This document shows positions 7,306 through 56,800 of a DNA stretch of 64,000 bases, piece by piece. The DNA comes from Minisyncoccota bacterium (GTDB lineage: Bacteria; Patescibacteriota; Minisyncoccia; Phycocordibacterales; UBA9973). How positions within the stretch are numbered: the first letter of the stretch is position 1; every line of letters starts with the position of its first letter. The stretch lies in NCBI GenBank assembly GCA_036405895.1, contig DASWWS010000001.1, positions 71,864-135,863 on the forward strand, read 5' to 3'. The notes under the pieces are model-generated. The model worked only from the letters and a program-made list of their open reading frames with translations. It was not told where the DNA came from and searched no databases. Made by a program: the position numbers and the translations under genes.

Positions 7306-8612
7306 TGACTTCCTTTCCGTATAAAAAAAGTATCATAGCGTTTGCCTTAAGCATATCTCTTGGAGTACTGATGCATCCCGAGAATGGCTTTGGTATTACG
7401 CCAACCTCTTCAAGTTACACTGTACATAACCCGGTCATTACCAGTGGCTTTGCCTCAATGGCATCCGGAAATTTTGGATTAGGCCAGTCATTTGGTCAAT
7501 CGGTTATCGGCAAGTCGCTTTCATCATCATTTGCAGTGTGGAGCGGATTTCAATATTTTGCCAGTGCGGGAACATTCACCCTTTCCGGGGTGGGGGGATC
7601 AAGTCAGGCGCAACTTTCTTGGACAATACCCGAGGTATTTAACGGAGCAGTTATTTCCGGGTATGAAGTGGGAATCGGGACAACATCGGGCTCGTATACG
7701 TTTCAGGATGTTGGGAATGTCACTTCGTTTACAAAAACAGGGCTCAATAACAATACGCCGTACTATTTTTTAGTGAAAGCGCACACTGCTTCAGGTGCAC
7801 CATTGTCGTTTTCCAATGAAGTGAGTATTACTCCAACAGGAACTATTACCCCGCCAGGCGGCGGTGGTGGTGGAGGGGGAGGAGGCAGTTCAACGGGGAC
7901 GGGGAGCGTTATTGTTTCAGGAATCGCATATCCGGGAGCGACAGTCGTTATTCTTAAAGACGGCAAGATTGAAACACAAACCACTGCCGACCCCGGAGGC
8001 GCATTTAACGTGCTTCTCTCAAGCCTTCGCGCAACCCACTATGCAATCGGCGTGTATGCCGAGGATACTGCAGGAAGAAAATCTCCTCCATACAGTTTTC
8101 CGGTCACGCTTGCAGACCAAGTCACAATTACTATTGCCAACGTATTTCTTGCGCCAACTATCGGCGTTGATAAGTCGGTCGTTGCGCAAGGAGAGCCGAT
8201 TGGAATTTTCGGTTCTTCCGCACCTAATACGCAGGTGAATATTTATGTGCACTCCGCGCAAGAGTTTGTGGAGAAGGTGACTTCAACTACCACCGGTGCG
8301 TGGTTTAAGCAGTTCGACACCACCTTTCTTGAAATAGGAGACCATAGTACATTTTCTCGCGCTGTGCTTTCTGACCAAGTAACGAATACCAGTGTGACAG
8401 TACCGTTCGTTGTGGGTACAACATCAGTTCCGATAGAGACGCTCGGTCGGAGCGACTTGAACAACGACGGGCGCGTGAACATTACCGACTTTTCCATGCT
8501 CTTGTACTATTGGCAAGGAACCCCGCCGCCCGGTTCAAAGGTGGATATTATAAAAGACGGCATTGTTAACAGTACAGACCTCTCAATCATGCTCTATGAT
8601 TGGACTGGATAA
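7305..8612 (+). CDS. Secreted FN3-domain protein with a poly-Gly linker and a C-terminal dockerin (two Ca-binding repeats)
   Basis: The start overlaps the previous stop (TAATG). FN3-like block (GYEVGIGTTSGSYTFQDVGNVTSFTKTGLNNNTPYYFLVKAHT). G10 linker. C-terminal DLNNDGRVNITDFSMLLYYW ... DIIKDGIVNSTDLSIMLYDW matches DxNxDGxVNxxD twice. Confidence 0.7.
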   Translation: MTSFPYKKSIIAFALSISLGVLMHPENGFGITPTSSSYTVHNPVITSGFASMASGNFGLGQSFGQSVIGKSLSSSFAVWSGFQYFASAGTFTLSGVGGSSQAQLSWTIPEVFNGAVISGYEVGIGTTSGSYTFQDVGNVTSFTKTGLNNNTPYYFLVKAHTASGAPLSFSNEVSITPTGTITPPGGGGGGGGGGSSTGTGSVIVSGIAYPGATVVILKDGKIETQTTADPGGAFNVLLSSLRATHYAIGVYAEDTAGRKSPPYSFPVTLADQVTITIANVFLAPTIGVDKSVVAQGEPIGIFGSSAPNTQVNIYVHSAQEFVEKVTSTTTGAWFKQFDTTFLEIGDHSTFSRAVLSDQVTNTSVTVPFVVGTTSVPIETLGRSDLNNDGRVNITDFSMLLYYWQGTPPPGSKVDIIKDGIVNSTDLSIMLYDWTG

Positions 8613-8616
8613 AATT

Positions 8617-9729
8617 ATGAAAATACTTTTGCAAAAAATTATCAGTACAATTATTTTTAGTGTATCTCTCTGCGTTCTTTTCGCAACGCCAAGCAGTGCT
8701 GCCACCCTTTCAGCAAGTGCGGCCCAACAGCAAGTGTATGCGGGAGATACGTTTGCAGTGGAATGGTTTCTCGATACAGAAAATCAATCAATCAATTTGA
8801 TTGACGCAGTGCTAACGTATTCATCAGAAACACTAGAAGTCATTGAACTCTCAACGGGTGTTTCCTCGTTTACGCTGTGGCCAAACCAGCCATATGTTCT
8901 CCGTGCTGGAACTATTAGCCTTACCGGAGGTATCCCTGCCGGAATTACAGGCGCGCGCGTGCGAGTACTGCGCACCGTATTTCGCGCAACTGCTCCCGGA
9001 ACTGCGACCATTGCCACCGCAGCTCCTTCACAGGTACTGCTTAACGACGGAATTGCAAGTGCACGGCCTCTTGGTGTGACACCTGTGGTTTTTGAAGTAC
9101 TGCCGGGCGACAGCGCGCCGTACAGCATCTACTCAACCACGCATCCGCTGGAAAACGTCTGGTACAAAAATACGCATGTGGAAATTGATTTTACACAAAT
9201 AAAGGGAGAAGAATACAGCTACAGCTTCAGCACAAATGCAGAACTTATTCCCGACGCTGTGCCGGACAAAGCAAGGACGCCGATTGTGTACGACAATATG
9301 CCAGACGGCGTGTATTACTTTACCCTGGCAAGCCGCTCTGGTGGCGGAGCGTGGCACGAAGCGCGCGTTTTTCGCGTACAGATCGATACCCAAGCTCCCG
9401 AATTTATTGATGCAAACATAGCGACAGATGAATCTCTGTTTGAAGGAAAAGCATTTGCAACATTTGCGGCAGTGGATAAGACTTCCGGTATTGAAAAGTA
9501 TGCAATAAAGAGCGGATGGTTTGGAACGTATAAGACTGCGACAACACCGTTTGAACTTCGCCGGCCGATTGTGGGAGATACGACATACATCCGTGCAATT
9601 GATAGGGCAGGAAATGTACAAACAACTGCGATCAATTTCCCTGGATACAGTAGACCGTTGTATGCGTATGTTGTTATACTATTGATACTAATAATTGTCG
9701 CTCTACGAATTCGACGAATACATTCATGA
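8617..9729 (+). CDS. Membrane-anchored cohesin-like domain protein
   Basis: Signal peptide (start moved to the ATG at 8617; the alternative upstream start is 8563). The N-terminal ~150 aa follow the cohesin-like pattern (ATLSASAAQQQVYAGDTFAVEWFLDTENQSINLIDAVLTYSSETLEVIELSTG...GITGARVRVLRTVFRATAPGTATIA...VLLNDG). Second beta-rich domain. C-terminal TM helix. Confidence 0.55.
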   Translation: MKILLQKIISTIIFSVSLCVLFATPSSAATLSASAAQQQVYAGDTFAVEWFLDTENQSINLIDAVLTYSSETLEVIELSTGVSSFTLWPNQPYVLRAGTISLTGGIPAGITGARVRVLRTVFRATAPGTATIATAAPSQVLLNDGIASARPLGVTPVVFEVLPGDSAPYSIYSTTHPLENVWYKNTHVEIDFTQIKGEEYSYSFSTNAELIPDAVPDKARTPIVYDNMPDGVYYFTLASRSGGGAWHEARVFRVQIDTQAPEFIDANIATDESLFEGKAFATFAAVDKTSGIEKYAIKSGWFGTYKTATTPFELRRPIVGDTTYIRAIDRAGNVQTTAINFPGYSRPLYAYVVILLILIIVALRIRRIHS

Positions 9730-10511
9730 AAAAAATTACGTTCTCTTTTTTGATAGTTCTTATTGCATGGTTTTGTGCAAGCGCTCCTGCAACAGCAGCT
9801 ACGCTTGTTGTGACTCCTCCGAGCGCGAGTGTTACCGAGGGTTCGACATTCTCCGTGAGCGTGCGAACTGATACGCAAGGACAGTCAGTCAATGTTGCCG
9901 AAGCGACTGTCGGGTTTTCAACAGACACCCTTGAAATAGTGAGCGTCAGTCCCGGCGCTACGTTTACCCTTCAGACCCCTGGCTCGCCAAGTAAAACCGC
10001 ATCAACGGCGTACTTTTCTGCGGGGATTCCTTCGGGCTACAACGGCTCGGCCGGGATGCTGGGCCGTATTACCTTCCGCGCAAAAAAGGCAGGGAAAGCA
10101 ACAATCAGCGTAACGTCCGGGAAAGTACTATTGAATGATGGAAATGCAACAAATGCGCTCAATGGAACTTCTGGTTCCGTAATCACTATCACGCCAAAAC
10201 CGGCTGTTGAACCGACAACTCCTATTAAAGAACCAGAAACCGCTGTTGTACCTCCTTCAATAGAAACACAGCCAGTAGTGGAAATGCCGATTGTTGTTAC
10301 TCCAACGCCTGTTCCAGAACCTGCGACCACGACTATTAGAACAAAAGATCTCTTCACTCTTATTTACATACTGATCGGCATTATCTTTATCCTTCTCGGG
10401 GTAATAATCGCACTCATTGCCGTGATTGCTCATAGAAAACCACTACCTCCCGTTGTACGAAAACCTCGCGCGAAAAAAGCAAAAGAAGAAGTACGGCTTT
10501 CGGATATCTAA
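9726..10511 (+). CDS. Membrane-anchored cohesin-like domain protein (paralog of 8617-9729)
   Basis: ATGA overlap with the upstream gene. Signal peptide. The domain is homologous to the previous gene's (ATLVVTPPSASVTEGSTFSVSVRTDTQGQSVNVAEATVGFSTDTLEIVSVSPG ... KVLLNDG). Pro/Thr linker, a C-terminal TM helix and a basic tail. Confidence 0.55.
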   Translation: MKKITFSFLIVLIAWFCASAPATAATLVVTPPSASVTEGSTFSVSVRTDTQGQSVNVAEATVGFSTDTLEIVSVSPGATFTLQTPGSPSKTASTAYFSAGIPSGYNGSAGMLGRITFRAKKAGKATISVTSGKVLLNDGNATNALNGTSGSVITITPKPAVEPTTPIKEPETAVVPPSIETQPVVEMPIVVTPTPVPEPATTTIRTKDLFTLIYILIGIIFILLGVIIALIAVIAHRKPLPPVVRKPRAKKAKEEVRLSDI

Positions 10512-11710: not shown

Positions 11711-12232
11711 ATGAAAAACCGAGGCTTCACCTTAATAGAGCTCCTTGTTGTTATTGCAGTGATTGGCATTTTAGCATCTGTTGTTTTAGCGAGCTTGAAT
11801 AGTGCTCGCGTTAAGGCTCGTAATGTTCGTCGCAATGCGGACATCCGGGAATTGCAAAGTGCCTTTGCTTTGGCAGCAAGCGATACAGGATCGATGCCGA
11901 GCTCTGCCGGAAACTTTGAGGGGTGGGCATGCGTCAGTGCTACATGCTATCAAGGATGGAGTATATATAGTGCCAACAGCACAGTGGATACCTTTATCGC
12001 AACAACGATGCCGTCAAAACCTATTGACCCTCCGGGCGGTCGCGGATACGGCGGATATTTGTACCATAGTTCATCATTGGGAGCCACTAACTATGATGGA
12101 AGTGTTACCACTGCAGGCCCCGTATTACACTGGCTGTTGGAGCCACCCTACAAAGTTGGGATGTGTGGTGCCGGAAATGCAAACGCTGTAAATTCAAACT
12201 ATGTCGCCTGTGTTATTTCGATAGGAAGATAA
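11711..12232 (+). CDS. Type IV pilin-like protein, paralog 4
   Basis: The same N-terminus plus the WACVSATCYQGWS and PPGGRGYGGYLY blocks shared with paralogs 1 and 2. Confidence 0.8.
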   Translation: MKNRGFTLIELLVVIAVIGILASVVLASLNSARVKARNVRRNADIRELQSAFALAASDTGSMPSSAGNFEGWACVSATCYQGWSIYSANSTVDTFIATTMPSKPIDPPGGRGYGGYLYHSSSLGATNYDGSVTTAGPVLHWLLEPPYKVGMCGAGNANAVNSNYVACVISIGR

Positions 12233-21500: not shown

Positions 21501-22406
21501 ATGGCAAACCGCCACCTCTCGAGGTCAATTGTTCTTCAATCACTGTTCGAATGGGATTTCTCCGGCCATCCGGAGGAGCTTAAGAGTGTGATTGATCGGG
21601 ACATTGCGGAGTTCGCTCCGGGGCACAACGATACTGCATTTATCTACGAACTCGCGGAGACTGTTCAGCGCAAGCAGACAGTCATCGATGACATCATCAT
21701 GAAGGCCGCTCCCGAGTGGCCGCTCGAAAAAATTTCAAACGTTGACCGCAATGTCCTTCGCATGGGCCTTGCGGAATTATTGTTTGGCGACCGCGAACAG
21801 GTTCCTCCAAAGGTTGCAATCAACGAAGCAATCGAGCTTGCAAAAACATTCGGCGGAGAAAACTCCGGCAAGTTCGTCAACGGCGTACTCGGTGCGGTGT
21901 ATAAAGAGATCGGCGAACCGGGCAAAGATCAGGCAAGCGCACCGCGCGGAAAGAAAGTCGAAGAGCCTGTAGATCCAAGCACGCTTGTTGTGGAAGCAAA
22001 GGCGGGAGGAATCGTGCACGCGCGCCATGACGGCGTGGACTATGTTGCACTTGTCCATGATGTCTTTGGATATTGGACGCTTCCAAAAGGCGGACTTGAA
22101 GAAGGTGAGACAAACGAAATTGCCGGCAAGCGCGAGATTGAAGAGAAGCTTGGTATCGAAGTAGAGCTCGGTCCGGAGATTGGGTCTATTGATTATGTGG
22201 CATCGCATCCTGAAAAAGGGAAGATTCGCAAGGTGGTAACCTTCTATTTGGCGCAAGCACAATACCAAGAACTCGACATGCACTCAAACGGCGGACTTGA
22301 CCGCGCTGCATGGTTCCAGCTGCACGAGGTGGTTGACCTGACGATATATGATGATATATTGCCACTGATTGCGAAAGCAATCGAGCATATTACCAAGAAA
22401 GACTAG
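21501..22406 (+). CDS. nusB: NusB (N-terminal ~140 aa) fused in frame to a NUDIX hydrolase domain
   Basis: The N-terminal VLQSLFEWDFSG...VDRNVLRMGLAELLFGD..VPPKVAINEAIELAKTFGGENSGKFVNGVLGAV is NusB. The C-terminus carries the Nudix box GGLEEGETNEIAGKREIEEKLGI. The reading frame is continuous, with no stop between the two halves. Confidence 0.75.
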   Translation: MANRHLSRSIVLQSLFEWDFSGHPEELKSVIDRDIAEFAPGHNDTAFIYELAETVQRKQTVIDDIIMKAAPEWPLEKISNVDRNVLRMGLAELLFGDREQVPPKVAINEAIELAKTFGGENSGKFVNGVLGAVYKEIGEPGKDQASAPRGKKVEEPVDPSTLVVEAKAGGIVHARHDGVDYVALVHDVFGYWTLPKGGLEEGETNEIAGKREIEEKLGIEVELGPEIGSIDYVASHPEKGKIRKVVTFYLAQAQYQELDMHSNGGLDRAAWFQLHEVVDLTIYDDILPLIAKAIEHITKKD

Positions 22407-28287: not shown

Positions 28288-28479
28288 AGGGGTCGCTCTG
28301 GAGATAGGGCTGTGTTGTTTGAAAATCTATTGTTAAGAATTAAAATGAACGCAAATATCTATTAAAGAAACCTAACTATTCCAAGTTAATTAAGTAAGGA
28401 GGCAAGCATACGGAGATTCGGAAATACCAATTTTCTCTTGCCTCAGTCTAAGATGTAGTTTTAAACTTATCTTTTAAGA

Positions 28480-30189
<1,710 letters not shown>

Positions 30190-30395
30190 CAAATTGAGAT
30201 GTTTTCTCATTGTCCCTCGTGGATGGTGATAAGATTGATACGGTTGAACCGGCGCAAGTCGGAAAAAGGTTGTGGTATGTGACTTAATACATACTCCCTG
30301 TGCAAGGGTTAGAGCACAAAAATCCTCTCGTACGTATCTATAGAGCGTATGAGCGGTAGACTGAGGCAAAAGAAAGTTGATATACTTTACTGGTA

Positions 30396-30869
30396 ATGGC
30401 ATTCATTCAAAACAATAGATTTTTTATACTACTAGGAATTGCACTCCTTTCATTAGGGGTGCTTTTTCTATTGTTGGGCCAGGGCACCCGTACTATAGTG
30501 CCCGGCTTTACTGATGGCACCCTGGTGAGCGGCAGTACCCGCATAGCGGTAAGCATTGCCGACAGCGAGTCTGAGCGCGTGCAGGGCTTATCCAATACCG
30601 ATCCGCTGCCGAAAGGTGTGGGCAAGTTTTTTATCTTCGATACGCCTGAAATGCATGGGTTTTGGATGAAGGATATGCGCTATGCAATAGATATTATATG
30701 GCTTGATGCGCAGATGAGGGTTGTTTCAATAAAAACGGGCGCCGCCCCTGAAAGCTATCCAGAAACATTCTACCCAAGCGCTGAATCTCTCTACGTACTC
30801 GAGGTGCCGTCCGGGTTTTCCACAGCAAAGAGCATTGAAGTGGGGCAAACGTTCACACTTCTGAAATAA
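30396..30869 (+). CDS. DUF192 (COG1430) family secreted protein
   Basis: N-terminal TM/signal. GLSNTDPLPKGVGKFFIFD...GFWMKDMRYAIDIIWLD...YVLEVPSGF matches the DUF192 pattern. Confidence 0.6.
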   Translation: MAFIQNNRFFILLGIALLSLGVLFLLLGQGTRTIVPGFTDGTLVSGSTRIAVSIADSESERVQGLSNTDPLPKGVGKFFIFDTPEMHGFWMKDMRYAIDIIWLDAQMRVVSIKTGAAPESYPETFYPSAESLYVLEVPSGFSTAKSIEVGQTFTLLK

Positions 30870-31053
30870 TTTATTTCGCCCCCGATTGGCCGCTGGTCAG
30901 AGAGATTGATGTATAACACTCTCTGGACAGAAGTCTTTACAAGAAAAAATTTTTATATCATTGCGCCAAAAAATGGAACAGAACTTCGTTGTTATCCTCG
31001 TATTTTTGTATACTATACGAAGTTTTAATTAATAGGTAAGCGGGGGAAACGAG

Positions 31054-32325
31054 GTGGCAATTACACTCATCAAGAAAAGAAGTGGCTCTATTACTGATTT
31101 TGATCGGTCTCGTATTGAGGTCGCAATAACCCGCGCTTATGAAGCGTCTAAGATGTTTATCGACATCGTATCCCTCTCCGAACTGGTCGATAAAATCGTT
31201 GCAGTACTTGAGGAAACCTACAATGAGCACAATATTCCGGAAGTTGAAGACATCCAAAACGTTGTCGAAAAAGAAATTGCATTGAAAGGGGATTTCGAGG
31301 TTGCAAAAGCTTATGTATTGTACCGAGAGGAAAGGAATCAAGAGCGAAAACGCGATATCTTCAAAAAAAGAGTGCATCTCAAGCCCTATGAATACCCAGA
31401 ACTCTATGAATACGTAAGCGCTGTTCGCCATTCGTACTGGATTCATACAGAGTTTAACTTTGTCAGCGACGTACAGGACTTTCAGGTAAATGTGGACGAG
31501 AAAGAGCGAAATGTCATCAAAAACGCAATGCTTGCCATTGCGCAAATAGAAGTCACCATCAAAACATTTTGGGGGGATATTTATAAGCGCCTGCCAAAGC
31601 CTGAGATCGGGGCAGTGGGAGCAACATTTGCAGAAAGCGAAGTGCGCCACACGGACGCCTATGCCCACCTTTTGGAAATTTTAGGACTCAATGAAGTATT
31701 CAAGACAATTGATGAGATACCGGCCCTGATGAAGCGGGTGAACTATTTGGAAAAATCCTTGGCAAATGCCCGCAGTGAAGATAATCGAGAATATAGTCAA
31801 TCAATATTACTCTTCTCGTTGTTTATAGAGCATGTGTCACTCTTCTCCCAGTTCCTTATCATGATGTCCTTTAATAAAAATAAGAATTTGTTCAAAGGCA
31901 TATCAAACGCTGTTGAGGCCACCTCGAAAGAAGAGCAAATTCACGGATTGTTTGGGATCGAGATCATCAACATCATCAAAACCGAGCATCCGGAATGGTT
32001 TGATGCAGAGTTTGAAGAGAGTGTGGTGAAACTATGCGAGGAAGCGTTTGAGTCGGAAACGGCTGTCGTAGAATGGATTTTTGAAAAAGGAGAGCTCGAA
32101 TTCATTTCAAAGGAAGTTGTTCTTGAATTTATTAAGACCCGCTTCAACAACTCGCTGCAAAGTATCGGTATTGCCAAGATATTCACCACGAATGAAGCCC
32201 TGGTGAAGGAATCAGAATGGTTTTATGACGAAGTAATCGCCACCAAGCACGGAGACTTCTTCAATAAAAAGTCGATCAACTACAACAAAAAAAGCAAGAG
32301 TATAACGAGCGATGACCTCTTTTAG
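31054..32325 (+). CDS. nrdB: Class I ribonucleotide reductase small (radical-generating) subunit with an N-terminal ATP-cone
   Basis: The N-terminal LIKKRSGSITDFDRSRIEVAITRAYE is an ATP-cone. Ferritin-like diiron ligands follow: ESEVRHTDAY (E-x2-H plus Tyr at H+4), EEQIHGLFG (E-x2-H) and FELSHxxxx-type helices. Confidence 0.8.
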   Translation: MAITLIKKRSGSITDFDRSRIEVAITRAYEASKMFIDIVSLSELVDKIVAVLEETYNEHNIPEVEDIQNVVEKEIALKGDFEVAKAYVLYREERNQERKRDIFKKRVHLKPYEYPELYEYVSAVRHSYWIHTEFNFVSDVQDFQVNVDEKERNVIKNAMLAIAQIEVTIKTFWGDIYKRLPKPEIGAVGATFAESEVRHTDAYAHLLEILGLNEVFKTIDEIPALMKRVNYLEKSLANARSEDNREYSQSILLFSLFIEHVSLFSQFLIMMSFNKNKNLFKGISNAVEATSKEEQIHGLFGIEIINIIKTEHPEWFDAEFEESVVKLCEEAFESETAVVEWIFEKGELEFISKEVVLEFIKTRFNNSLQSIGIAKIFTTNEALVKESEWFYDEVIATKHGDFFNKKSINYNKKSKSITSDDLF

Positions 32326-32346
32326 CAGACTAAATAAACAACAGAC

Positions 32347-34074
32347 ATGTATTGGTTAAATGAAAACAGCAGAAAATTTTTATCAAAAGGCTACCTTGTA
32401 GGAAACATTACTGCAGAGGAGCGTATTCGCGAAATCGCAGAGATTGCAGAGAAGTATCTTCAGAAGCCCGGTTTTGCCGATAAGTTCTACGACTACATGT
32501 CTCGAGGGTTCTACTCGCTCGCAAGCCCTATTTGGTCTAACTACGGCCAGACCCGCGGGCTTCCCATCAGCTGTTTTGGGAGCTACGTCGGAGATGACAT
32601 GTCTCGAATTCTCTACACCCATGCCGAAGTTGGCATGATGACAAAAAACGGCGGCGGCACGTCCGTGTATCTTGGAGCACTTCGCCCTCGCGGAGCGGTG
32701 ATTAAAGACAATGGGCACTCATCAGGCTCAGTGCACTTTTTGGAACTCTTCGACAATCTCATTAATATTGTTTCGCAAGGCACCGTTCGCCGCGGGCACT
32801 GCGCACCGTATTTACCCGTTGAGCATGGCGATATCGAAGAATATTTGAACATTGGAACAGAAGGCCACCCAATTCAGGAATCAACCTACGCTGTTACTGT
32901 GGGCGATGCATGGCTTAAGGCTATGGTGGATGGCGACCAGGACAAGCGAAAGATCTGGGCAAAGATTATCCAGCGCCGTACTGAAATTGGCTACCCGTAC
33001 ATTCTTTTCAGTGATACCGTGAATAACAACACTGTGGACGTCTACAAGGACAAGGGAATGAAAATCAACAACAGCAACCTTTGTTCCGAAATCTGCCTTC
33101 CGACTGCAGACGATATCTCATTCGTTTGCTGCCTCTCTTCCATGAATGTTCGCCATTACCACGAATGGAAGGACACTGATGCGGTTGAAGTCTTGACCAT
33201 GTTCCTCGATACAGTTATCTCAGACTTTGCTGCGCGCCTCGAAAGCTTCCGCGACAGTGAGGACCCTCAAAAGCAGTCAGCGTTCTACTTTATGCAACGC
33301 GCGCACAAGTTTGCTGTAGAGCATCGCGCTTTGGGTCTTGGCGTACTCGGTTGGCACACCTTCCTTCAGGAAAGCAATATTGCATTTGAAAGCCCTGAAG
33401 CAACTGCGCTCAACGAAGAGATTTTCAAGCTTATCAAAGAAAAGGCATACAAGGCATCCGAAGATATGGCAAAAGAATACGGCGAGCCTGAAGTATTGAA
33501 AGGCTATGGCCGCCGCAATACAACGCTCTTGGCCGTTGCGCCGACCACTTCTTCTGCATTTATTCTCGGGCAGGTATCTCAAAGTATCGAACCGTTGATG
33601 TCCAACTGTTTTGTAAAAGATGTCGATAAGATGAAGGTGACTATCAAAAACCAGACCCTTGAAGCATTGCTTGAAGAGAAGGGGCAGAATACTGCAGAAG
33701 TATGGGGTAATATTCGCGATAATGATGGATCGGTTCAACACCTCGACTTCCTGACAGCTCATGAAAAAGAAGTGTTTAGAACATTTAGTGAAATCGACCA
33801 GAAGGCAATTGTGGACCAGGCAGCAGACCGCCAAAAGTACATTGATCAGGCTCAGTCATTAAACATCATGATTGACCCGGCGATTTCTACAAAAGAACTC
33901 AATGCTCTGTATCTGTATGCATGGGAGAAAGGAATCAAAACCCTCTATTACCAGCACAGCATGAATGCTGCTCAGCAGTTTGGGCGAAAGAAGCTTCAGG
34001 AGAATGCAGAAGCAAAAAAGCCAAAAGTGATTTTTGTCGGCGAAGACAACATGTGCGTTAACTGCGAAGCATAA
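32347..34074 (+). CDS. nrdA: Class I ribonucleotide reductase large subunit, short form without an ATP-cone
   Basis: NLCSEI active-site Cys-Glu loop. The ten-stranded barrel GYPYILF and CCLSSMN motifs. C-terminal Cys pair (CVNCEA). 575 aa. Confidence 0.8.
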   Translation: MYWLNENSRKFLSKGYLVGNITAEERIREIAEIAEKYLQKPGFADKFYDYMSRGFYSLASPIWSNYGQTRGLPISCFGSYVGDDMSRILYTHAEVGMMTKNGGGTSVYLGALRPRGAVIKDNGHSSGSVHFLELFDNLINIVSQGTVRRGHCAPYLPVEHGDIEEYLNIGTEGHPIQESTYAVTVGDAWLKAMVDGDQDKRKIWAKIIQRRTEIGYPYILFSDTVNNNTVDVYKDKGMKINNSNLCSEICLPTADDISFVCCLSSMNVRHYHEWKDTDAVEVLTMFLDTVISDFAARLESFRDSEDPQKQSAFYFMQRAHKFAVEHRALGLGVLGWHTFLQESNIAFESPEATALNEEIFKLIKEKAYKASEDMAKEYGEPEVLKGYGRRNTTLLAVAPTTSSAFILGQVSQSIEPLMSNCFVKDVDKMKVTIKNQTLEALLEEKGQNTAEVWGNIRDNDGSVQHLDFLTAHEKEVFRTFSEIDQKAIVDQAADRQKYIDQAQSLNIMIDPAISTKELNALYLYAWEKGIKTLYYQHSMNAAQQFGRKKLQENAEAKKPKVIFVGEDNMCVNCEA

Positions 34075-34080
34075 CAATAT

Positions 34081-34113
34081 AAAAAAACCTCATATTGCAT
34101 GAGGTTTTTTTAT
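34081..34113. terminator. Intrinsic terminator after nrdA
   Basis: aaaaaaacctcatattgcatgaggtttttttat. Confidence 0.7.
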
Positions 34114-34123
34114 ATGCATAATG

Positions 34124-34463
34124 GAGGGGTTGTACCGCTCGATCGCTCTTGATTCAGTAATTGAGTCAGGGGAGGAAAGTCCGAACACACAACGATTCAA
34201 TTCGTACAGGTAGCGGGTAATTCCCGTCTGGCGCAAGCCACGAGGTGCGAACAGAGACGCCCGCGCAGAAATGCAAAGGATTCCTCCTCTCTTGTAGATG
34301 AGGAATAGCTCCTTTGGTAACAAAGGAGTTGAAACGGCTAAATCCTTACTTGTGTGCAAGGCCGTGCCCCGCAAAGCCGGGGAGTGCTGCTAGAGGGAGT
34401 TGGCAACAACTCTCCCAGATAAATGATCGATAGAACAGAATTCGGCTTACGAGTACAACACAT
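34124..34463 (+). ncRNA. rnpB: RNase P RNA (bacterial type A-like)
   Basis: GGAGGAAAGTCCGAACAC (P4 5' strand). ACAGGTAGCGGGTAATTCCCG. The CAGAAATGC...ACAGAATTCGGCTTA P4 3' strand near the 3' end. P1 pairing GTTGTAC/GTACAAC. Followed by the hairpin aaaaaacatcctgaaacggatgtttttt. Confidence 0.75.
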
Positions 34464-34496
34464 GAAAAAACATCCTGAAACGGATGTTTTTTCTTA

Positions 34497-34548
34497 CCCT
34501 AGCAAGGACCGTCCTTCTGAAATTCAGAAGGACGGTCCTTGCTAGGGG
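34497..34548. repeat. Palindromic intergenic repeat element, copy C (a chimeric long palindrome built from halves of units 1 and 2)
   Basis: CCCTAGCAAGGACCGTCCTTCTGAAATTCAGAAGGACGGTCCTTGCTAGGGG. Confidence 0.8.
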
Positions 34549-34567
34549 ATTTGGTATACTGCTACGC

Positions 34568-35908
34568 ATGAATCACTCACCATGGATAGTCCAACTCAAA
34601 CGAACCCGCCCGGTCGAACCGCTTTCATCAAATCTTACCGCTGACGTTGCTGTTGTAGGAGGCGGGATTGCCGGAATAACAACCGCATATTTCCTTCTTA
34701 CAAAAACCACGCAATCAGTAATACTTTTGGAAGCAGGGAAAGTTGCACATGGTGCAACTGGGCACAATGCAGGACAGATTACGAGCTATTTTGAAAAGTC
34801 CTTTACCGAGCTCGCTGAACGCTACGGCATAGTGCAGACAACCGCAGCTCACCGAGCAATAGAAGAAGATGCACGCGCGCTCCTTGAACATATTTTTGCA
34901 CATGCCGAGCTTTCGACCCCGTTCTCGCAATTTATTGGGTATGACGGACTCGCGCTTGAAAGTCAGGTTCTTCAGGCGCTGCATGATCTCTATCTCAAGG
35001 CAAAAGCGGGCCTTCGCGTGCGCCCTTTGTTGATAGCAAAAGAGTGGGTAGCGCACGGGGTGATTCCGCATGAGTACACGCCGTACACACTGGTGGTTGC
35101 TCAAGAGAATATTCTCTCGCTTTTGGAAACAAGCGACACGCAGTATATTGCCGCTTTGCCATTTCTTTCCGGATGCATGAACAGCGCGCTTTTTACTGAA
35201 GAGCTTACGGGGTATTTGCTCGCAACATTTCCTGAGCGGTTTACCTTGAAAGAGCATACCCCTGTGTCACGTGTTGTGTTGGGTTCTGAAGAAGTTCTGC
35301 TCCACGCCGGTATTAATATAGTGACGACAAGTCATGTTGTGCTGTGCACGAACGGCTTTGAGTCTATACAGATTGATAATCCAGGGGGCGCTGATATTGA
35401 TACGGCATTTCACATGGAAGTTGAAGGGGTGGTAGGGTACATGGCAGCCTATAAAGAAGAACTCAATAAGGCGCCCTTTGCTGGAATTTATTCTCACGCT
35501 TTGGTCAGCGAAGCCAATCCGTATTTCTACACGACACGCCGTCCGTTTGAAGACGAAAGCAATGCAACGCATAATCTTGTATGTGTGGGAGGACCCGAAG
35601 TCTATCTGCCGGACCGCGCAACGTACGATGCGCACAAAGAATATCCGCTTGAGATTAGTGATGCAATTGGAACGTTTTCGTCACTGCATTACCAGCATCA
35701 CCCGCATATGGACTACTACTGGCACGGGCTTATGGGGTACACAAAAAGCTGGGTGCGTATGGTGGGATTTGAACCAAAAAACAAACGACTGTTGTATAAC
35801 CTCGGTTGTAACGGCGTCGGCATTCTTACCAGCGTGTACGGTTCGGAGCGCATCGCCCGACTCTTAAACGGAGAATTGCTCGCACACACTATCTTTGATC
35901 CGCAATAA
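34568..35908 (+). CDS. FAD-dependent oxidoreductase (DAO/glycine oxidase-like)
   Basis: Rossmann DVAVVGGGIAGITTAYFL...GATGHNAGQI. Start trimmed to the ATG at 34568, downstream of the repeat element. Confidence 0.7.
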   Translation: MNHSPWIVQLKRTRPVEPLSSNLTADVAVVGGGIAGITTAYFLLTKTTQSVILLEAGKVAHGATGHNAGQITSYFEKSFTELAERYGIVQTTAAHRAIEEDARALLEHIFAHAELSTPFSQFIGYDGLALESQVLQALHDLYLKAKAGLRVRPLLIAKEWVAHGVIPHEYTPYTLVVAQENILSLLETSDTQYIAALPFLSGCMNSALFTEELTGYLLATFPERFTLKEHTPVSRVVLGSEEVLLHAGINIVTTSHVVLCTNGFESIQIDNPGGADIDTAFHMEVEGVVGYMAAYKEELNKAPFAGIYSHALVSEANPYFYTTRRPFEDESNATHNLVCVGGPEVYLPDRATYDAHKEYPLEISDAIGTFSSLHYQHHPHMDYYWHGLMGYTKSWVRMVGFEPKNKRLLYNLGCNGVGILTSVYGSERIARLLNGELLAHTIFDPQ

Positions 35909-36111
35909 GTGTTGTAACAGAAAATAAACGCAAACGATTTGCATTTACATTTTTTCAAAAAAACACGAGTTATCCACAGTTTTTTATAAAAAAATATTGC
36001 TTGTGCATCACGCGCGAGAGATAATGTATGTACATGTGGTGATAACGCGTTCAATCACAATCAGTGGTCGATCATCACAGATGTATTACAAGTAAACTTA
36101 CGCATAAATTT

Positions 36112-36252
36112 ATGGCAGCAAAAAGAAAGGTAGCCAAGAAAGCTGTGAAGAAGGCTGTTAAAAAGACAGTTAAGAAAGCAGTTAAGAAGGTTGCTAAAAA
36201 AGCAGTAAAGAAAGCAGCAAAGAAAAAGGTTGCTAAAAAGAAAAAGAAATAA
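36112..36252 (+). CDS. Lys/Ala-rich histone H1-like small basic protein (46 aa)
   Basis: MAAKRKVAKKAVKKAVKKTVKKAVKKVAKKAVKKAAKKKVAKKKKK. Followed by the hairpin accgcgacaacaaggccgcggtttt. Confidence 0.5.
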   Translation: MAAKRKVAKKAVKKAVKKTVKKAVKKVAKKAVKKAAKKKVAKKKKK

Positions 36253-50295: not shown

Positions 50296-53200
50296 ATGGA
50301 AAAGAATCACGATATTAACAAATCTTTGGAACACACAGCGCCGGAAGTCGTGCCTGTTGTAGAGGGTGAGACAGTGGATGTAGAGCACGAGCTGGTAGAA
50401 GCACCACAAGAACAAGAACAAGAACCGCAAACGACAGAACAAGAATCAGAACAGGTGCAGCCAGAGCAAGCGGCAGAACCCGTACCGGAATCCGCAGTAA
50501 AGGAGACTAAGAGCCCCGAAGAATTGCAGAAAGAATTTGAAGCCCAAATCAAACAAATCGCTTTTGTAAACGTGGCCCAGCTTGCTGAAAACGAAGCGCG
50601 CGATGTTGCCGAAGAGCGCCTTACCGAGGAGCGCGAAAAGTCTACTGGCGTAAAAAATTTCTTTAAGCGCGTATGGAAGCACAACATTGCGCGAGAGTAT
50701 TACCGCCAAAGAGAAATCGCGGACGTGAAAGATGCGATTTATTCTCAGCAGAATATTTTTGCCGGGGAGGCCTTGGAAAAAAAGAGCCACCAGTCTGCAA
50801 TGGATGCAGTAACCGAGCGTTTTTTGAGCGAATACGATGGCGTGATTCGAGAAGATGCGGGTGAAAAAAAGGCTTTGCTTGAAGAAGAAAACCCGGAGGT
50901 GAAAACGCTGAAGGGTGAAATCACCGAAATGATTAAAGGATATGCCAATGGAAGCATTGATGATGCGACATTTGATGTTGAGCGCGACAGAATCCTTGAG
51001 AGTGTGGGTGCTGTGGGCAAAGAAACGGTGGGTGAAGGCCGATTGTATGCGGACAACCTCAAGCGCGTTGCCGAACAATTAAAGCATGCACTTAATCATG
51101 GCGTATCACTTGAGAATCTTGATATGAAATTTGATCTTAAGGTGGGGCGCGCCGTGTCAGGTGTTAAAACCGAAGCCAATACAAACAAGGTAGACAGGGC
51201 AATTGAGTGGATTAACAAAAAAACAAAAGGGGGAAGCAGTATTCTTATAAATGAAACCACTGTCGCAGCCGGTGTTTCTATTGCGACCGCTTTCGGCGCC
51301 GCTGCACTGAAAGGCGCTGCACGTACTACTGCGCAAGTCGGCGGATTTATGGGGGGAGCTGCGCTTGCCGGCACCATGAGCGCATTTAAGGAAAACAGCC
51401 GCCTTAAAAATGAGCGCGCGCAGCATGCCCGCGACCGCGCAAAAGGGCGTGTGATTGATGAAGATTCTCCGCGCCGGGAAAAGATGGAAGCGTTTCAATA
51501 CAAGACCAAGACAGCGCAAGAGCTTCGCAGCGGACTCCTTTCAACGCTCTATACCGACAATGACCCAAGCAAAGGTATTAGCGAAGAAATGAAGTCGCCG
51601 GAGAAATTCAAGGCTGCCCTTGCCGCACTTGCAGAAGTGGAGGGGCGCATCAGTGTTTCCAATAAAGCGCGCATTGACCTGATTTCTTTTTCTGATGCAA
51701 AGGCGGTTGAAGTTGAGCGAACGGCGCTTGAAATAGAGCATGCCCGCGCAAAGACGCTGCTTCGAAACTATTACGACAGCACTCCTGCAATCAACGAGTC
51801 AATTCGGGAAAAATTTGATTCACTGCTTGCCAAGGACGCCGGCGCATACGAAAAGTCTCTTTTTGATGGAGATCTCAGCGAAAAAGACAAGGCATTTCGT
51901 GCAATGAAGCAAAAAGCCGTGGGCCGCGCATTGGTCAAGGGTGCACTTTCAAGTGTTGTTGTGGGAGGTGTTGTGCAAGAAGGCATGGCATTTGCACAGA
52001 GCAACACGGAAGGATTTGTTGAAGGTTTAACAGTCGGAAATCCGACAGCAGAACATGCAACCCCCCTTGAATCTCTTCGAGTATGGATCTCGGGTAAGTT
52101 CGGCGAGAAGGCGGCAGATGCAGTGGAAGTTTCAAACCTCCATCTTAAAGAAGTGCAGTGGAGCAATCTCAGAGAACACCTTCGTTTTCCAGAAGGAACA
52201 GAACTTACTGAAAATGGGGACGGAAGCGTAACAATCACCCAAGGAGGCACAGTGCTTGCAGACCACATACCGTTTGAGTTTGGAGCCGACCATATTCCGA
52301 CAGCAGAAACGCTTGCATCGCTGAGTGCGCACAAGATTATTCCCGGAGATGTGACGGTTGATTCCATTACAGAAATGATAGAAGGAGCGCCGCTTTCTCC
52401 AAAAGAATATGTTGACCAAAACCTTGAAGATACGCAGGCTATCAAGCGAGACCTGTGGTATGACAACAATACAACAGCGCCTGTATTTGAGAAAAACGAA
52501 TTACAGGCCGACTGGGGCGGAGAAAATGCTACGGGTATTGATGAGAAAGGAAATTATGTATTCAGTACGGCCGAGATGTCCAAAGATGGCTCGACCCAGG
52601 GCGCATTTTCTGCTGATGCAAAAGCACTTGCGGAGAAAGGGGAACTGAAGATGCTTCTGTCGCTCTCCAAAGACACGCAAAACCAAGTGTTTGAAGTTCC
52701 TATCGATGCAAATGGTAATGCTGTTATCGACCCAAACAGCGAAGTGGGCAAGCTATTCTTTACGACAGTGGACGGCAAGGCCGTATTCAACGGAAAGTAT
52801 GCTGAAGTTGCCCAGATAATGAAGGGCGCCGAGGGGGAAGCGGAGCATGTTCGCGTGCTGAGCACTGTTGTTGGAAAAGGAATTGATACGCTGCCCGGAA
52901 TGAAAGAAAGTGTTGTTGAGGAAGCAACCCATGACTTTACCTTCGATACTGCGCCCGCTGACCTGCCGCGAGACACTGATTTGCCGCCGACAATTCCCTT
53001 GGTAGGGCGTATTCCGCTTGAGCCGATGAAAGGACCCGCAGAAGAAAAGAAAGAAGAAAAACCTCTTGTCGATATACCTTCAATGATTCCGACAGCAGAA
53101 CAACCACCAATCGCTCCTCCCGCTGTAACGGTAATGGATGTAGCTCCAGACGGAACATTGATGAAAGAAAATGTGCAAACAGGAGAAAGCGAACCTGTTG

Positions 53201-53790
53201 TTGCAAAGAATGGACAATGGAATGGAGAGGTGGAAGTCGATACTCCTGAACAAAAAAAGACTGAAGCAATTTCGCAAGCTGACTACGATGCCCTTCGAAA
53301 AGACCTTGATCTTATAAATGCAAAAATACAGGGGCACGATGGCATAATCACGGTGAACGAAAACGACTTTGCGTCGACCTTGGGGCGCCGCCGCTACCTT
53401 GATCTTAATCGGGTGCCTGACGGAAAACCGGTATCATTTAATAAAGAAGAATTGCGCGCAATAGGAGACTCTCTTGAGAAGACTCTTTCAGAAAGCCATA
53501 TCGACAGCACGCTCAAGCCCGGAGAAAAAGAGCGCATGCTCAGAGAAGGGATAGCGCTTGCAGAGTACAATATGCTTCGCGCGGACATGGAGAAAATCAA
53601 TAAAGAATATGCCCAAGGACGCAACATTCTCAGCATGAATCCAGATGAGTTCCAATCAGCATATGCAAAGCTTCGCCTCTTTGAACTCAAGCAAGAAGAG
53701 CGAGCTCGCCCCGCATTGTATCGAGGAGAGCTTCGTACTATCGGAGACGAGGTAGAAGACCTGCTCGTGCGAGGAACAATAAAAAATTAA
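50296..53790 (+). CDS. Giant hypothetical protein (1164 aa). Acidic QE-rich N-terminus, coiled-coil stretches, and two Gly/Ala-rich hydrophobic segments.
   Basis: Long uninterrupted ORF. No catalytic motif recognised. Hydrophobic stretches SILINETTVAAGVSIATAFGAAAL and VGGFMGGAALAGTMSAF. Confidence 0.6.
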   Translation: MEKNHDINKSLEHTAPEVVPVVEGETVDVEHELVEAPQEQEQEPQTTEQESEQVQPEQAAEPVPESAVKETKSPEELQKEFEAQIKQIAFVNVAQLAENEARDVAEERLTEEREKSTGVKNFFKRVWKHNIAREYYRQREIADVKDAIYSQQNIFAGEALEKKSHQSAMDAVTERFLSEYDGVIREDAGEKKALLEEENPEVKTLKGEITEMIKGYANGSIDDATFDVERDRILESVGAVGKETVGEGRLYADNLKRVAEQLKHALNHGVSLENLDMKFDLKVGRAVSGVKTEANTNKVDRAIEWINKKTKGGSSILINETTVAAGVSIATAFGAAALKGAARTTAQVGGFMGGAALAGTMSAFKENSRLKNERAQHARDRAKGRVIDEDSPRREKMEAFQYKTKTAQELRSGLLSTLYTDNDPSKGISEEMKSPEKFKAALAALAEVEGRISVSNKARIDLISFSDAKAVEVERTALEIEHARAKTLLRNYYDSTPAINESIREKFDSLLAKDAGAYEKSLFDGDLSEKDKAFRAMKQKAVGRALVKGALSSVVVGGVVQEGMAFAQSNTEGFVEGLTVGNPTAEHATPLESLRVWISGKFGEKAADAVEVSNLHLKEVQWSNLREHLRFPEGTELTENGDGSVTITQGGTVLADHIPFEFGADHIPTAETLASLSAHKIIPGDVTVDSITEMIEGAPLSPKEYVDQNLEDTQAIKRDLWYDNNTTAPVFEKNELQADWGGENATGIDEKGNYVFSTAEMSKDGSTQGAFSADAKALAEKGELKMLLSLSKDTQNQVFEVPIDANGNAVIDPNSEVGKLFFTTVDGKAVFNGKYAEVAQIMKGAEGEAEHVRVLSTVVGKGIDTLPGMKESVVEEATHDFTFDTAPADLPRDTDLPPTIPLVGRIPLEPMKGPAEEKKEEKPLVDIPSMIPTAEQPPIAPPAVTVMDVAPDGTLMKENVQTGESEPVVAKNGQWNGEVEVDTPEQKKTEAISQADYDALRKDLDLINAKIQGHDGIITVNENDFASTLGRRRYLDLNRVPDGKPVSFNKEELRAIGDSLEKTLSESHIDSTLKPGEKERMLREGIALAEYNMLRADMEKINKEYAQGRNILSMNPDEFQSAYAKLRLFELKQEERARPALYRGELRTIGDEVEDLLVRGTIKN

Positions 53791-53801
53791 TGTATAAAAA
53801 T

Positions 53802-53836
53802 AATTACACCGCAGGCTCTGTGGTGTAATTATTTTT
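53802..53836. terminator. Intrinsic terminator
   Basis: aattacaccgcaggctctgtggtgtaattattttt. Confidence 0.7.
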
Positions 53837-53857
53837 CCACTCCGTTGAGCATGGTGC

Positions 53858-56800
53858 ATGTTATATAATAGAAAGATGATGAAGTACACCACACCACTGT
53901 TCTTGATAGCATTTTTATTTCTTATCAGTCCGTTTTCTGCGCATGCTGCATTTAGTGATACGCCTCAAGCTCGTTATGTAGGCACTACAGCGGGGTCATA
54001 TTATACGATGGCGCAAAATGCGGATACGATTTATGTCGGGGGCGAGTTTCCCGATATTGCTGTTACCAATAGCGTGCTCTCGCTCAATCTTGCAAATCAA
54101 ACAATAGCTGACAGAGAACTTCCGCTTGTCGTCGCAGCATCAGAAGGAATTATGGCAACTGCAGTTGATGCAGACGGCAATATATATCTTGCGGGGGACC
54201 CAATTGAAGTTGACGGAGTTGATAGAGGAAGGGTTGTTCGCATTCTTGCGAATGGAACGCTTGATGAGTCCTTTTCCATAGAAACAACCCAAGGAATTCG
54301 CGCACTGGCACTTTCAGGGGATACTCTGTATGCCGGAGGTGATGGGGAGCTGATTGCCATTGATTTGGACACCGCTGAGCAGGATGTTGTAGGAACGGAT
54401 ATGCTCGGAATCCTTTCTCTTGCAGTTTCAGGAAATATTCTGTATGTCGGAGGGCAGTTTTCCGATGCTGATGCTGACTCGGGGAATCCGGAAGTCTATA
54501 AATATCTCGCCGCATTTGATATGAGTGTTCCGGGCGGCGCACTGGTAACAGCTTTCAATCCTATTATTGACGGAGGAGCAGTGCGTGCTCTTGTTGTGTC
54601 TGGAGGCACGGTGTATGCAGGAGGATCGTTTACAGAAGTGGATGGCGACACTGCGCACAATGCAGTAGTTGCGCTGAGTACGACCGACGGAAGCATTGTT
54701 GAAAGTTTTGCCGCATCAGTGGATACAGGCGGGGTAGTGCTCGACCTCCTTCTTGAAGGCACAACACTCTATGTTGCAGGAAATTTCAACGGCATAAATA
54801 GCGAAGCTCGATTAGGTGTTGCAGCAGTGTCTACCATAGATGGCTCCGTTATTACTGCATTTGATGCAGATCTTACGGGGACTGCTCGCTCTGTAGTGTT
54901 GCATAACAGCACTCTTTACATGGGGGGAGAATTTATGGCTCTCAACGGGGACATGAACCATAATTATTTTGGAGCATTTGATGCTGCAACAGGAGAAATG
55001 CAAGCACTGAAAGCTTCTGTAGGGGCAAATGTAAATTCACTTTTTCTTTTGGGAGAGAGGTTGTATATAGCGGGAGAGTTCACCTCTACATCATTTTTTA
55101 GAAATGGGATTGCTGCTTTTGAAAAAGAATCAGGAGCCTTGACCTTCTTTGACCCTGGAATTGAAACATCTGCACCTGTCTATGCATTAATGCTTGATGG
55201 CACCACGCTGTATGCGGGTGGAGGGTTTTCGGGTATGGGCCCGGACGCTGAGCACAACTTTCTTGCAGCATTCGACAGTACGACAGGTGCTCTGATAGAG
55301 AGCTTCAAGCCTATTATTGAAAATACTGTCTGGAGTATTGCACTCGACGGCACCACAATCTATGCCGGAGGAGAGTTTACTGCAGTAGGAGGCAATGCGG
55401 CACACAATCGTCTTGCGGCATTCAATACTGCAGATGGCAGCTTAGTGGGGACACTTGCTCCGGACTTGGATTTTGAGGTGTGGACACTGTTTGTTGATGG
55501 TCAAAATGACCGACTCTATGTTGGGGGTGTATTTACTGATGTCGACGGAGATCCAGATTTGGATTATCTGGTGGCGTTTGACACAGTTACGGGAGCCCTT
55601 ATTCCAAGCTTTAATCCGATTGTTAATGGTGACGTCTATTCATTTGCACTTGACGGCACTACGCTTTATGTAGGAGGAACCTTTACTGCGGTAGGAGGCA
55701 ATGCGGCACACAATCGTCTTGCGGCATTCAGCACTGCTGACGGATCAGTAATTGGGTCCTTTGTTCCTAATCTTGAAACAAGCAATCCAAACTCTCTCGT
55801 GCTCGACGGTGACACGCTCTATGCGGCAGGGTATTTTACAGCAGTCAATGGCGACAGCGACTACGCGTATCTTGCAGCGCTTGATACTACAGACGGCTCT
55901 CTTGTGTCTGGCTTCAATCCTGTAATGAATGCTGACGTGTTGGCAATCCAAAGTGATGACGATGCATTATATGCGGCCGGATCCTTTAGTTCTGTAGGAG
56001 GAGAGGATCATAGTCATATTGCAGCCTTTCCTTTCGCTGTTCTTACCCCAACCGTTACTACCCAAGCCGCTTCTTCTATCACCCAAACCACTGCGACTCT
56101 CAACGGCACAATCGCCGATACAGGAGGTGAGAATGCAACTGCTCGCGGATTCAATTACGGTCTTACAACAGGGTATGGATCTACAGCGTCTACGAGCGGT
56201 TCATACTCAGCCGGCGCCTATACTGCAAGTATTACAGGCCTTACCTGCGGCACCCTTTATAACTTCCGCGCATTTGCGACCAATTCTGAAGATACTGGCA
56301 CTGGAGCAAACCAAACATTCACCACAAGTGCCTGTGACGGAGGGTCGGATGCCCCCACTGTAACAACAGAGGACACTTCTTCTCTCAACAGAACCACTGC
56401 TACAGTAAACGGAACCATTACTGCAACAGGAGGAGAAACTGTGACTGCTCGCGGATTCAATTATGGAATTACGACAAGTTACGGCAGCACCGTTTCTGAA
56501 ACGGGTACGTACTCAACCGGCGCATTTTCAGCACAGATTGAGGGTCTTGAGTGTGAGACTGAGTATCACTATCGTGCATTTGCAACCAATACTGAGGGTA
56601 CCAGCTATGGATCCGATGAGGTATTCACGACTTCAGACTGTACACGAAGCGGAGGAGGATCATCCTCAAGCGGGCCGCGCAATGATGCGTCTGCTCCCGC
56701 TGAAACTCCCACCCCTTCAACCGACACAACAGCGTGCCGCCCTGGAGACAATTTTAGCGCCGCAACGGGAGCGAGATGTTCTGGAACGGCAACGCCACCA

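Follow-up and report, generated by a model that had tools for sequence, protein, structure and literature searches.

What kind of ribonucleotide reductase (RNR) is encoded by a gene pair in which the ATP-cone is joined to the radical-generating subunit, NrdB, and is missing from the catalytic subunit, NrdA? The question is raised by adjacent nrdB and nrdA genes in a 64,000 nucleotide (nt) stretch of DNA from a Minisyncoccota bacterium (assembly GCA_036405895.1, contig DASWWS010000001.1, positions 71,864 to 135,863 of the forward strand); the whole stretch is called the window here, and all positions are those of the window. An earlier note, made from the letters and their open reading frames (ORFs), had read the pair as a class I RNR of the rare type in which activity regulation is moved to the small subunit, and had given NrdB a diiron/tyrosyl-radical core. 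The match to known small-subunit activity regulation is borne out by domain scans, by homology to Protein Data Bank structures and by synteny; the core is probably of a different kind. The pair is very probably best explained as an aerobic, dimanganese class Id (NrdAi/NrdBi) RNR of Candidatus Paceibacterota that is switched by the cone on NrdB.

The nrdBA gene pair and its domains

The two genes and the parts of NrdB are arranged as follows:

31054..32325, + strand: nrdB, GTG start, 423 amino acids (aa); radical-generating subunit with N-terminal ATP-cone, assigned to class Id (NrdBi)
31069..31338, + strand: ATP-cone (PF03477), NrdB residues 6–95; predicted allosteric ATP/dATP sensor
31369..32193, + strand: ferritin-like metal-binding core, NrdB residues 106–380, from Pfam and residue mapping
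32236..32322, + strand: flexible C-terminal tail of NrdB, residues ∼395–423, with Y410 and terminal SITSDDLF; low predicted local distance difference test score (pLDDT)
32326..32346, + strand: intergenic spacer of 21 nt, from the sequence; too short to encode a cone
32347..34074, + strand: nrdA, 575 aa; cone-less catalytic subunit, assigned to class Id (NrdAi)

The Pfam ATP-cone family PF03477 matches residues 6–95 of NrdB at 66.4 bits (cut-off 25.8, E = 3.3e-18) and is covered from profile position 3 to 87 of 88, and Ribonuc_red_sm matches residues 106–380 at 194.8 bits. The N-terminal segment thus scores clearly above the cut-off as an ATP-cone and lies ahead of an R2 core, as the earlier note had it, and the peptides it quoted are all in place (ITLIKKRSGS... 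at residues 3–30, ESEVRHTDAY at 194–203 and EEQIHGLFG at 293–301). In the AlphaFold model the cone has strands at residues 5–7 and 13–15 and helices at 18–31, 38–55, 64–77 and 81–104, so that its fold is confidently predicted to be a β-hairpin plus a four-helix bundle; mean pLDDT in blocks of ten residues is 76–91 over residues 1–80 and 63 over residues 81–90.

Relatives were drawn from the GTDB one-genome-per-species representatives (at least 587 stretches, the best 80 of which were analyzed) and, for viruses, from IMG/VR (497, of which again the best 80 were analyzed); residue conservation was counted over 78 orthologs from related genomes. A full-length cone is present in 80 of the 80 genomic matches (60–90% identity), and in every one of these loci the cone-bearing nrdB is followed directly downstream by a cone-less nrdA; the nrdB-nrdA order, with its 21 nt gap here, is thus constant among them. 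The orthologous loci open with the same MAI... start, which supports the GTG start of nrdB. An NCBI protein of Candidatus Paceibacterota, from a metagenome-assembled genome (MAG), matches NrdB at 100% identity. Because the identical protein is found on five contigs and the same layout recurs in all 80 related loci, the architecture is not an assembly artifact. A cone hidden upstream of nrdA, which the earlier note had named as a thing that would refute it, is likewise absent: an in-frame stop lies three codons 5′ of the nrdA start codon, and with a spacer of only 21 nt there is no hidden cone exon.

NrdAi proteins are short catalytic subunits with a median length of ∼564 aa (PMC9669993), and the 575 aa NrdA, which is cone-less and carries the expected catalytic residues (C76, N244/C246/E248, C261-C262, Y534-Y535 and a C-terminal C570-x-x-C573), has the properties of this group. 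It passes the TIGR02510 “NrdE-prime” equivalog of NCBIfam (771.7 against a cut-off of 602), and its best solved relatives are the class Id α subunits 6DQX (E = 5.2e-214) and 6DQW (E = 2.6e-174). Its Pfam matches are the RNR barrel and a borderline all-α N domain (27.9 against 28 bits, residues 3–71), and Pfam finds no ATP-cone in it; the barrel is preceded by this short all-α segment and is not, as had been stated, the start of the protein. A class Ib NrdE/NrdF pair with a C-terminal cone on NrdF was considered and rejected, as NrdA scores 164.8 with TIGR04170 (NrdE), far below the cut-off of 750, and the cone here is N-terminal. Such a pair is known from Meiothermus (PMC5794259), whose NrdF resembles the NrdB here in that a radical-generating subunit carries the cone and the catalytic partner has none, but which has the cone at its C-terminus.

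Nucleotide-binding residues of the cone

Cone residues K8, R9, A24, E72, Y90 and R91 are invariant in 78/78 orthologs, F16 and Y87 are kept in 77, position 20 is R or K in 76, and position 85 is K or R across the 78. K8, Y87 and R91 are still kept in cone-NrdB clusters whose members are 36–46% identical to the query. The NrdB cone aligns to the cones of Pseudomonas aeruginosa NrdA and of NrdD, and its KR motif and basic helix-1 residue fall opposite P. aeruginosa K36/R37/K48. Cones that bind two nucleotides, tail to tail, are recognized by an aromatic residue in their last helix (PMC9110341). The P. aeruginosa class Ia NrdA cone (5IM3) is of this two-dATP type, and its aromatic/Arg last helix, like its KR motif, aligns with the NrdB cone; in that enzyme, however, the cone is on the catalytic subunit, the inhibited form is α4 and the small subunit belongs to another subclass. 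In characterized cones of the two-dATP type, cone-cone pairing drives tetramerization. Sensing of dATP by the NrdB cone is well supported at the level of sequence, and since the nucleotide-binding residues are invariant in the 78 orthologs, feedback inhibition by dATP through NrdB tetramers is the likely mechanism.

Assignment to class Id and predicted cofactor

The closest solved structure to NrdB is the cone-bearing NrdB of Leeuwenhoekiella blandensis (5OLK, E = 2.6e-163), and the next best are other class Id β subunits (6SF4/5, 8DQ3 and 6CWO-Q). The top Foldseek match of the NrdB model is also 5OLK, over the full length and at 59% identity in 394 columns that include the cone; the core by itself is 68–69% identical to that of L. 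blandensis over ∼290 aligned positions. In the alignment to 5OLK the residue number here equals the L. blandensis number minus 4. Mapped in this way, all six metal ligands are present (E166, E196, H199, E259, E294 and H297) and are invariant in the 78 orthologs; the first of them, the most N-terminal, is in every case a Glu and not an Asp. Equally invariant are K170 and W173 (L. blandensis Lys174/Trp177) and Y203 and T290 (Tyr207/Thr294). Published criteria for NrdBi are a glutamate as the first ligand and a lysine directed to the metal site, with a strictly conserved tryptophan three residues on (PMC6754362), and E166/K170/W173 share the E-x3-K-x2-W spacing of Facklamia ignava E239/K243/W246 (PMC6754362). 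Because of these signature residues and the best structural relatives, the gene pair is classed from its sequence as a class Id (NrdAi/NrdBi) reductase. Characterized NrdBi relatives contain Mn2(IV,III) and have no tyrosyl radical (PMC5794259, PMC6754362), and by homology to the L. blandensis and F. ignava enzymes the signature residues predict the same cofactor, and no tyrosyl radical, in this protein.

The terminal eight residues of NrdB (SITSDDLF) are identical to those of L. blandensis NrdB, and Y410 and F423 are nearly invariant across the divergent cone-NrdB clusters. This C-terminal tail has low pLDDT, as is expected of a disordered tail. In class I RNRs the C-terminal tail of the small subunit binds NrdA, and the SITSDDLF tail should do so here.

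Proposed mechanism and alternatives

Modeled on the characterized homolog (PMC5794259, PMC8350387), the enzyme would work as follows. NrdA would be a minimal cone-less catalytic subunit that reduces nucleoside diphosphates at C246 and whose C-terminal CxxC would be re-reduced by a thiol redoxin encoded elsewhere. The dimanganese center of NrdB would be oxidized, probably by superoxide, to Mn2(IV,III), and this center rather than a tyrosyl radical would start radical transfer to NrdA by way of the NrdB C-terminal tail. The N-terminal ATP-cone would be the overall-activity switch, while substrate-specificity regulation would remain on NrdA. With ATP bound, NrdB would be a β2 dimer that gives active α2β2; when dATP accumulates, two dATP would bind to each cone and the cones would pair through their last two helices (α3/α4) to make a NrdB β4, which would hold NrdA in nonproductive α2β4 or α4β4. 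Inhibition by dATP and tetramerization are expected here on the basis of the L. blandensis and F. ignava homologs, and the exact β4 geometry of dATP-bound NrdB is inferred by analogy.

Several observations weigh against this reading. Divergence is much greater in the cone than in the core (median identity 51% versus 83% between the window protein and the 78 orthologs), and the best-scoring stretch that HMMER aligns to 5OLK does not start until query residue 53, even if the envelope extends as far as chain residue 8. At the L. blandensis tetramer interface Asp73 corresponds to Asn69 here (31 of the 78 orthologs have Asn and 47 have Asp), Met80 to Ala76 and Ile92/93 to Val88/Leu89; the other interface equivalents are Glu72 (L. 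blandensis residue 76), Lys85 (Lys89) and Arg91 (Arg95), and a charge pair and the hydrophobic character are retained. Since the interface residues are only partly kept, the strength or the geometry of the β4 interface may not be the same. The AlphaFold prediction of the core is of low quality (pLDDT 61.7 on average, from a shallow alignment of 16 sequences), and because of this low confidence the model was not used for metal-site geometry. Finally, many Patescibacteria are regarded as anaerobic fermenters, and an enzyme activated by superoxide would require conditions that are at least micro-oxic.

The altered interface residues, such as Asn69 and Ala76, speak for a reading in which the cone is a working nucleotide sensor but acts through a quaternary mechanism other than the L. 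blandensis β4. It could, for example, make a different cone-cone or cone-NrdA contact, or be chiefly an ATP-dependent activator. ATP-cones are known to drive diverse inhibited oligomers across RNRs (PMC11226230, PMC8350387), and this one is ∼50% identical even among close orthologs. Nevertheless, such a departure is unlikely, as the E72/K85 salt-bridge pair, hydrophobic residues at 76/88/89 and R91 are all kept, and the last-helix motif AKAY-x-x-YR is a nearly exact match to that of L. blandensis.

It is very unlikely that NrdB is a classical class Ia-type protein with a diiron center and a stable tyrosyl radical on Y203, in which the position of the cone alone would be unusual; the diiron/tyrosyl-radical core of the earlier note is thus probably wrong. 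This reading has in its favor the tyrosine at the canonical radical site and the full set of six carboxylate/histidine ligands, but Glu166 stands where such a protein would have Asp, and Lys170 and Trp173 are NrdBi-specific substitutions. The invariant Thr290 corresponds to the L. blandensis threonine that keeps the tyrosine off the metals, ∼6–7.6 Å from the metal site (PMC5794259, PMC6754362). Classical diiron NrdB of the Escherichia coli type is matched at E ∼1e-4 and over a partial stretch only, compared with 1e-163 for class Id, and the NF006576 class Ia β profile gives 22.3 against a cut-off of 346. L. blandensis NrdB, moreover, is activated by Mn and inhibited by Fe2+, and an organic radical was not seen in it (PMC5794259, PMC6754362).

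That the cone is a decaying, nonfunctional remnant on an enzyme effectively as unregulated as the cone-less class Id RNRs is hardly credible: cone-less NrdBi enzymes do function (Flavobacterium johnsoniae and Actinobacillus ureae), cones are readily gained and lost (PMC5794259) and 3 of the best 80 viral relatives have none, but the Pfam cone score is well over threshold, every one of the 80 genomic relatives has the cone at full length, and the nucleotide-contacting residues are invariant where their neighbors vary freely, the pattern of purifying selection on a binding site.

A cone-switched dimanganese class Id enzyme, the preferred reading, has its nearest known counterpart in L. blandensis NrdAi/NrdBi (5OLK, 6SF4/6SF5; PMC5794259, PMC6754362, PMC8350387). 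The two share the cone, linker, NrdBi core and disordered SITSDDLF tail, the cone-less NrdAi partner, the metal ligands and the Lys/Trp/Tyr/Thr signature. They differ in host (a marine flavobacterium, as opposed to a Patescibacteria MAG), in the cone, which is here markedly more divergent than the core and has the Asp73, Met80 and Ile92/93 replacements given above, and in NrdA length (a 600 aa construct in L. blandensis, PMC8350387, versus 575 aa here); L. blandensis also owns a class II RNR. The F. ignava NrdB (PMC6187632, PMC6754362), whose cofactor is Mn2(IV,III), similarly combines a cone with a class Id core and the E/K/W signature, but it has a glutaredoxin domain, and there is none in this NrdB nor any redoxin gene among the window ORFs scanned. 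Cone-less class Id RNRs share with this pair the minimal NrdAi (6DQX, E = 5e-214) and, in NrdBi, the fold and ligands of the core, but with no ATP-cone on their NrdB they lack overall-activity regulation.

Distribution of the cone-on-NrdB arrangement

The record titles of most of the best 80 genomic matches are of the Patescibacteria group (Paceibacterota, Nomurabacteria, Saccharibacteria and similar), and a few are titled otherwise, including Woesearchaeota, Methanosarcinales and Gammaproteobacteria. Among the best 80 viral matches 77 have the cone. Clustering at 50% identity gives at least 13 distinct full-length cone-NrdB clusters, together with intein-containing variants and one fused variant. 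When the arrangement was described in 2018 it was found in 93 RefSeq sequences, 70 of them from Flavobacteriales, and all such species own another RNR (PMC5794259); Burnim et al. report that β cones occur almost only in β-α operons, especially with NrdAi (PMC9669993). The word “rare” in the earlier note is therefore fair for the 2018 RefSeq sampling, which it reflects, but it does not hold for species-representative genomes and IMG/VR, where the relatives number in the hundreds: the cone-on-NrdB arrangement is much more widespread than “rare” implies.

The domain architecture, the structure, the dATP-driven β4 mechanism, the Mn2(IV,III) cofactor and the correlation with β-α gene order have all been published already. 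The pair thus adds little to RNR biology and is of value chiefly for taxonomy and ecology. In Paceibacteria-type members of the candidate phyla radiation (CPR) the arrangement is standard and syntenic and belongs to the core chromosome; it is also frequent in viral contigs, and the published picture of a rare and mostly Flavobacteriales trait understates its spread. It implies deoxynucleotide synthesis that depends on oxygen and manganese in a lineage usually described as anaerobic. Full-text literature searches found no paper that links Patescibacteria with ATP-cone RNRs, and the prevalence in CPR may have gone unremarked so far; this is a point of distribution and not a new mechanism.

A more ambitious statement, that Patescibacteria and not Flavobacteriia are the main cellular reservoir of cone-on-NrdB class Id RNRs, which would be the only RNR of these very small genomes and be unaccompanied by NrdR, is possible but doubtful. 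If it is true, it contradicts the 2018 observation of another RNR in every cone-NrdB species, and the supply of deoxynucleoside triphosphates in these supposedly fermentative episymbionts would hinge on manganese and on O2/superoxide and have no feedback control other than the NrdB cone. The high identity of the core to its flavobacterial and viral counterparts would in that case be a sign of horizontal transfer, perhaps by way of phages. Within the 64 kb window, phmmer searches of all six-frame ORFs of at least 50 aa, with the cone, the core of NrdB and the whole of NrdA as queries, found only nrdB and nrdA, and no second RNR, NrdR or other ATP-cone; when another 40 ORFs of the window were scanned with Pfam, NrdR, NrdI, thioredoxin and glutaredoxin were not among the matches.

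Some of the more distant cone relatives (P0197, P0152, P0237, P0182 and P0139) have unusual domain combinations. Among such relatives are cone-NrdB proteins broken up by Hint/intein domains, a 1019 aa single chain of cone, NrdB and NrdA that may be a natural β-α fusion or may result from a missed stop, and a protein in which two ATP-cones are fused to a uridine kinase (PRK) domain. Cone-NrdB operons also occur in contigs binned as Woesearchaeota (DPANN archaea) and as Methanosarcinales and in an Absconditabacterales genome (loci L062, L063 and L078); the genes of the last are fragmented under table-11 translation, consistent with an alternative genetic code. These occurrences suggest horizontal spread among small-genome episymbionts, or mis-binning.

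Putative expression signals of the operon

Four features flank the coding region or lie just beyond it:

31007..31014, + strand: putative extended −10 element TG-TATACT, from a reading of the sequence
31042..31046, + strand: putative Shine-Dalgarno-like GGGGG, 7 nt 5′ of the GTG
34077..34115, no strand assigned: perfect palindrome with an 18 bp stem and A and T runs on either side, from a terminator scan; likely a bidirectional intrinsic terminator
34127-34465: RNase P RNA gene; the palindrome sits between the nrdA stop (34074) and this gene

The operon appears to be driven by the putative extended −10 element and ended by the palindromic terminator. An extended −10 box of the form TTTTGTATA(A/C)T is found at the equivalent site 5′ of nrdB in most close relatives. 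A promoter consensus scan did not report the TG-TATACT element at 31007–31014, because there is no good −35. Upstream of nrdB (30900–31053 and its equivalents in loci L001-L041) there is a module made up of a TATAAC-like box, CTTTACA, ∼12 nt and a T-rich TTTTTTATTTC run; the run lies ∼118 nt 5′ of nrdB and the extended −10 box comes after it. In many relatives the −10 box is just 10–15 nt from the ATG, so that the mRNA would be nearly leaderless, whereas nrdB of the window has a 39 nt leader, the GGGGG Shine-Dalgarno sequence and a GTG start. No NrdR box (a 16 bp palindrome) was seen by eye 5′ of nrdB in the aligned upstream regions, and the conserved TTTACA-N12-T-rich module is unlike one.

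Genomic neighborhood

The window belongs to the core chromosome of a Candidatus Paceibacterota, a member of the Patescibacteria (CPR). Its nrdBA operon has a 16S rRNA gene (28473–30194) on one side and the RNase P RNA gene on the other, with SecA, DnaE, SMC, GyrB, ThrRS and type IV pilins encoded in the neighborhood. The G+C fraction of nrdA, 0.47, equals the window value and that of nrdB is somewhat lower, 0.42. An origin from a mobile element was considered and rejected in view of the flanking 16S rRNA, RNase P RNA, SecA, DnaE, GyrB and SMC genes and the absence of adjoining mobility genes.

A gene for a membrane-anchored DUF192 (COG1430) protein (30396–30869) adjoins nrdB upstream, as it does in 45/80 related loci; this adjacency is probably inherited synteny, because it is found mostly in loci with the closer NrdB relatives. 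On the other side, just after the RNase P RNA gene, a DAO-family FAD oxidoreductase gene (34484–35908, 474 aa) was examined as a candidate superoxide-generating activase and set aside, as it is near nrdBA in only 6/80 loci. The 16S rRNA gene is 1722 nt long against a model of 1533 positions, which implies ∼190 nt of inserted sequence, and the genes after it are those for DUF192, NrdB, NrdA, RNase P RNA and SecA and not a 23S gene; CPR bacteria typically have rRNA genes that contain insertions and are unlinked.

Elsewhere in the window, a 301 aa ORF (21501–22406) joins a NusB domain (residues 7–135) to a NUDIX hydrolase domain (189–283), a fusion of which we know no other example. A run of large surface-type proteins at 4393–10511 contains Peptidase_S74 (endosialidase chaperone), fn3, Big_6, dockerin and cohesin domains, and three type IV pilin-like genes lie in or around it (3016–3537, 3793–4314 and 11711–12232); the cluster may be a cohesin-dockerin attachment apparatus of an episymbiont. 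A 62 aa ORF at 36064–36252 has no Pfam match and consists almost entirely of lysine-rich KKAVKK repeats, like a histone H1 or nucleoid protein. Two very large adjacent ORFs of 1164 and 1091 aa occupy 50296–57133 on the + strand.

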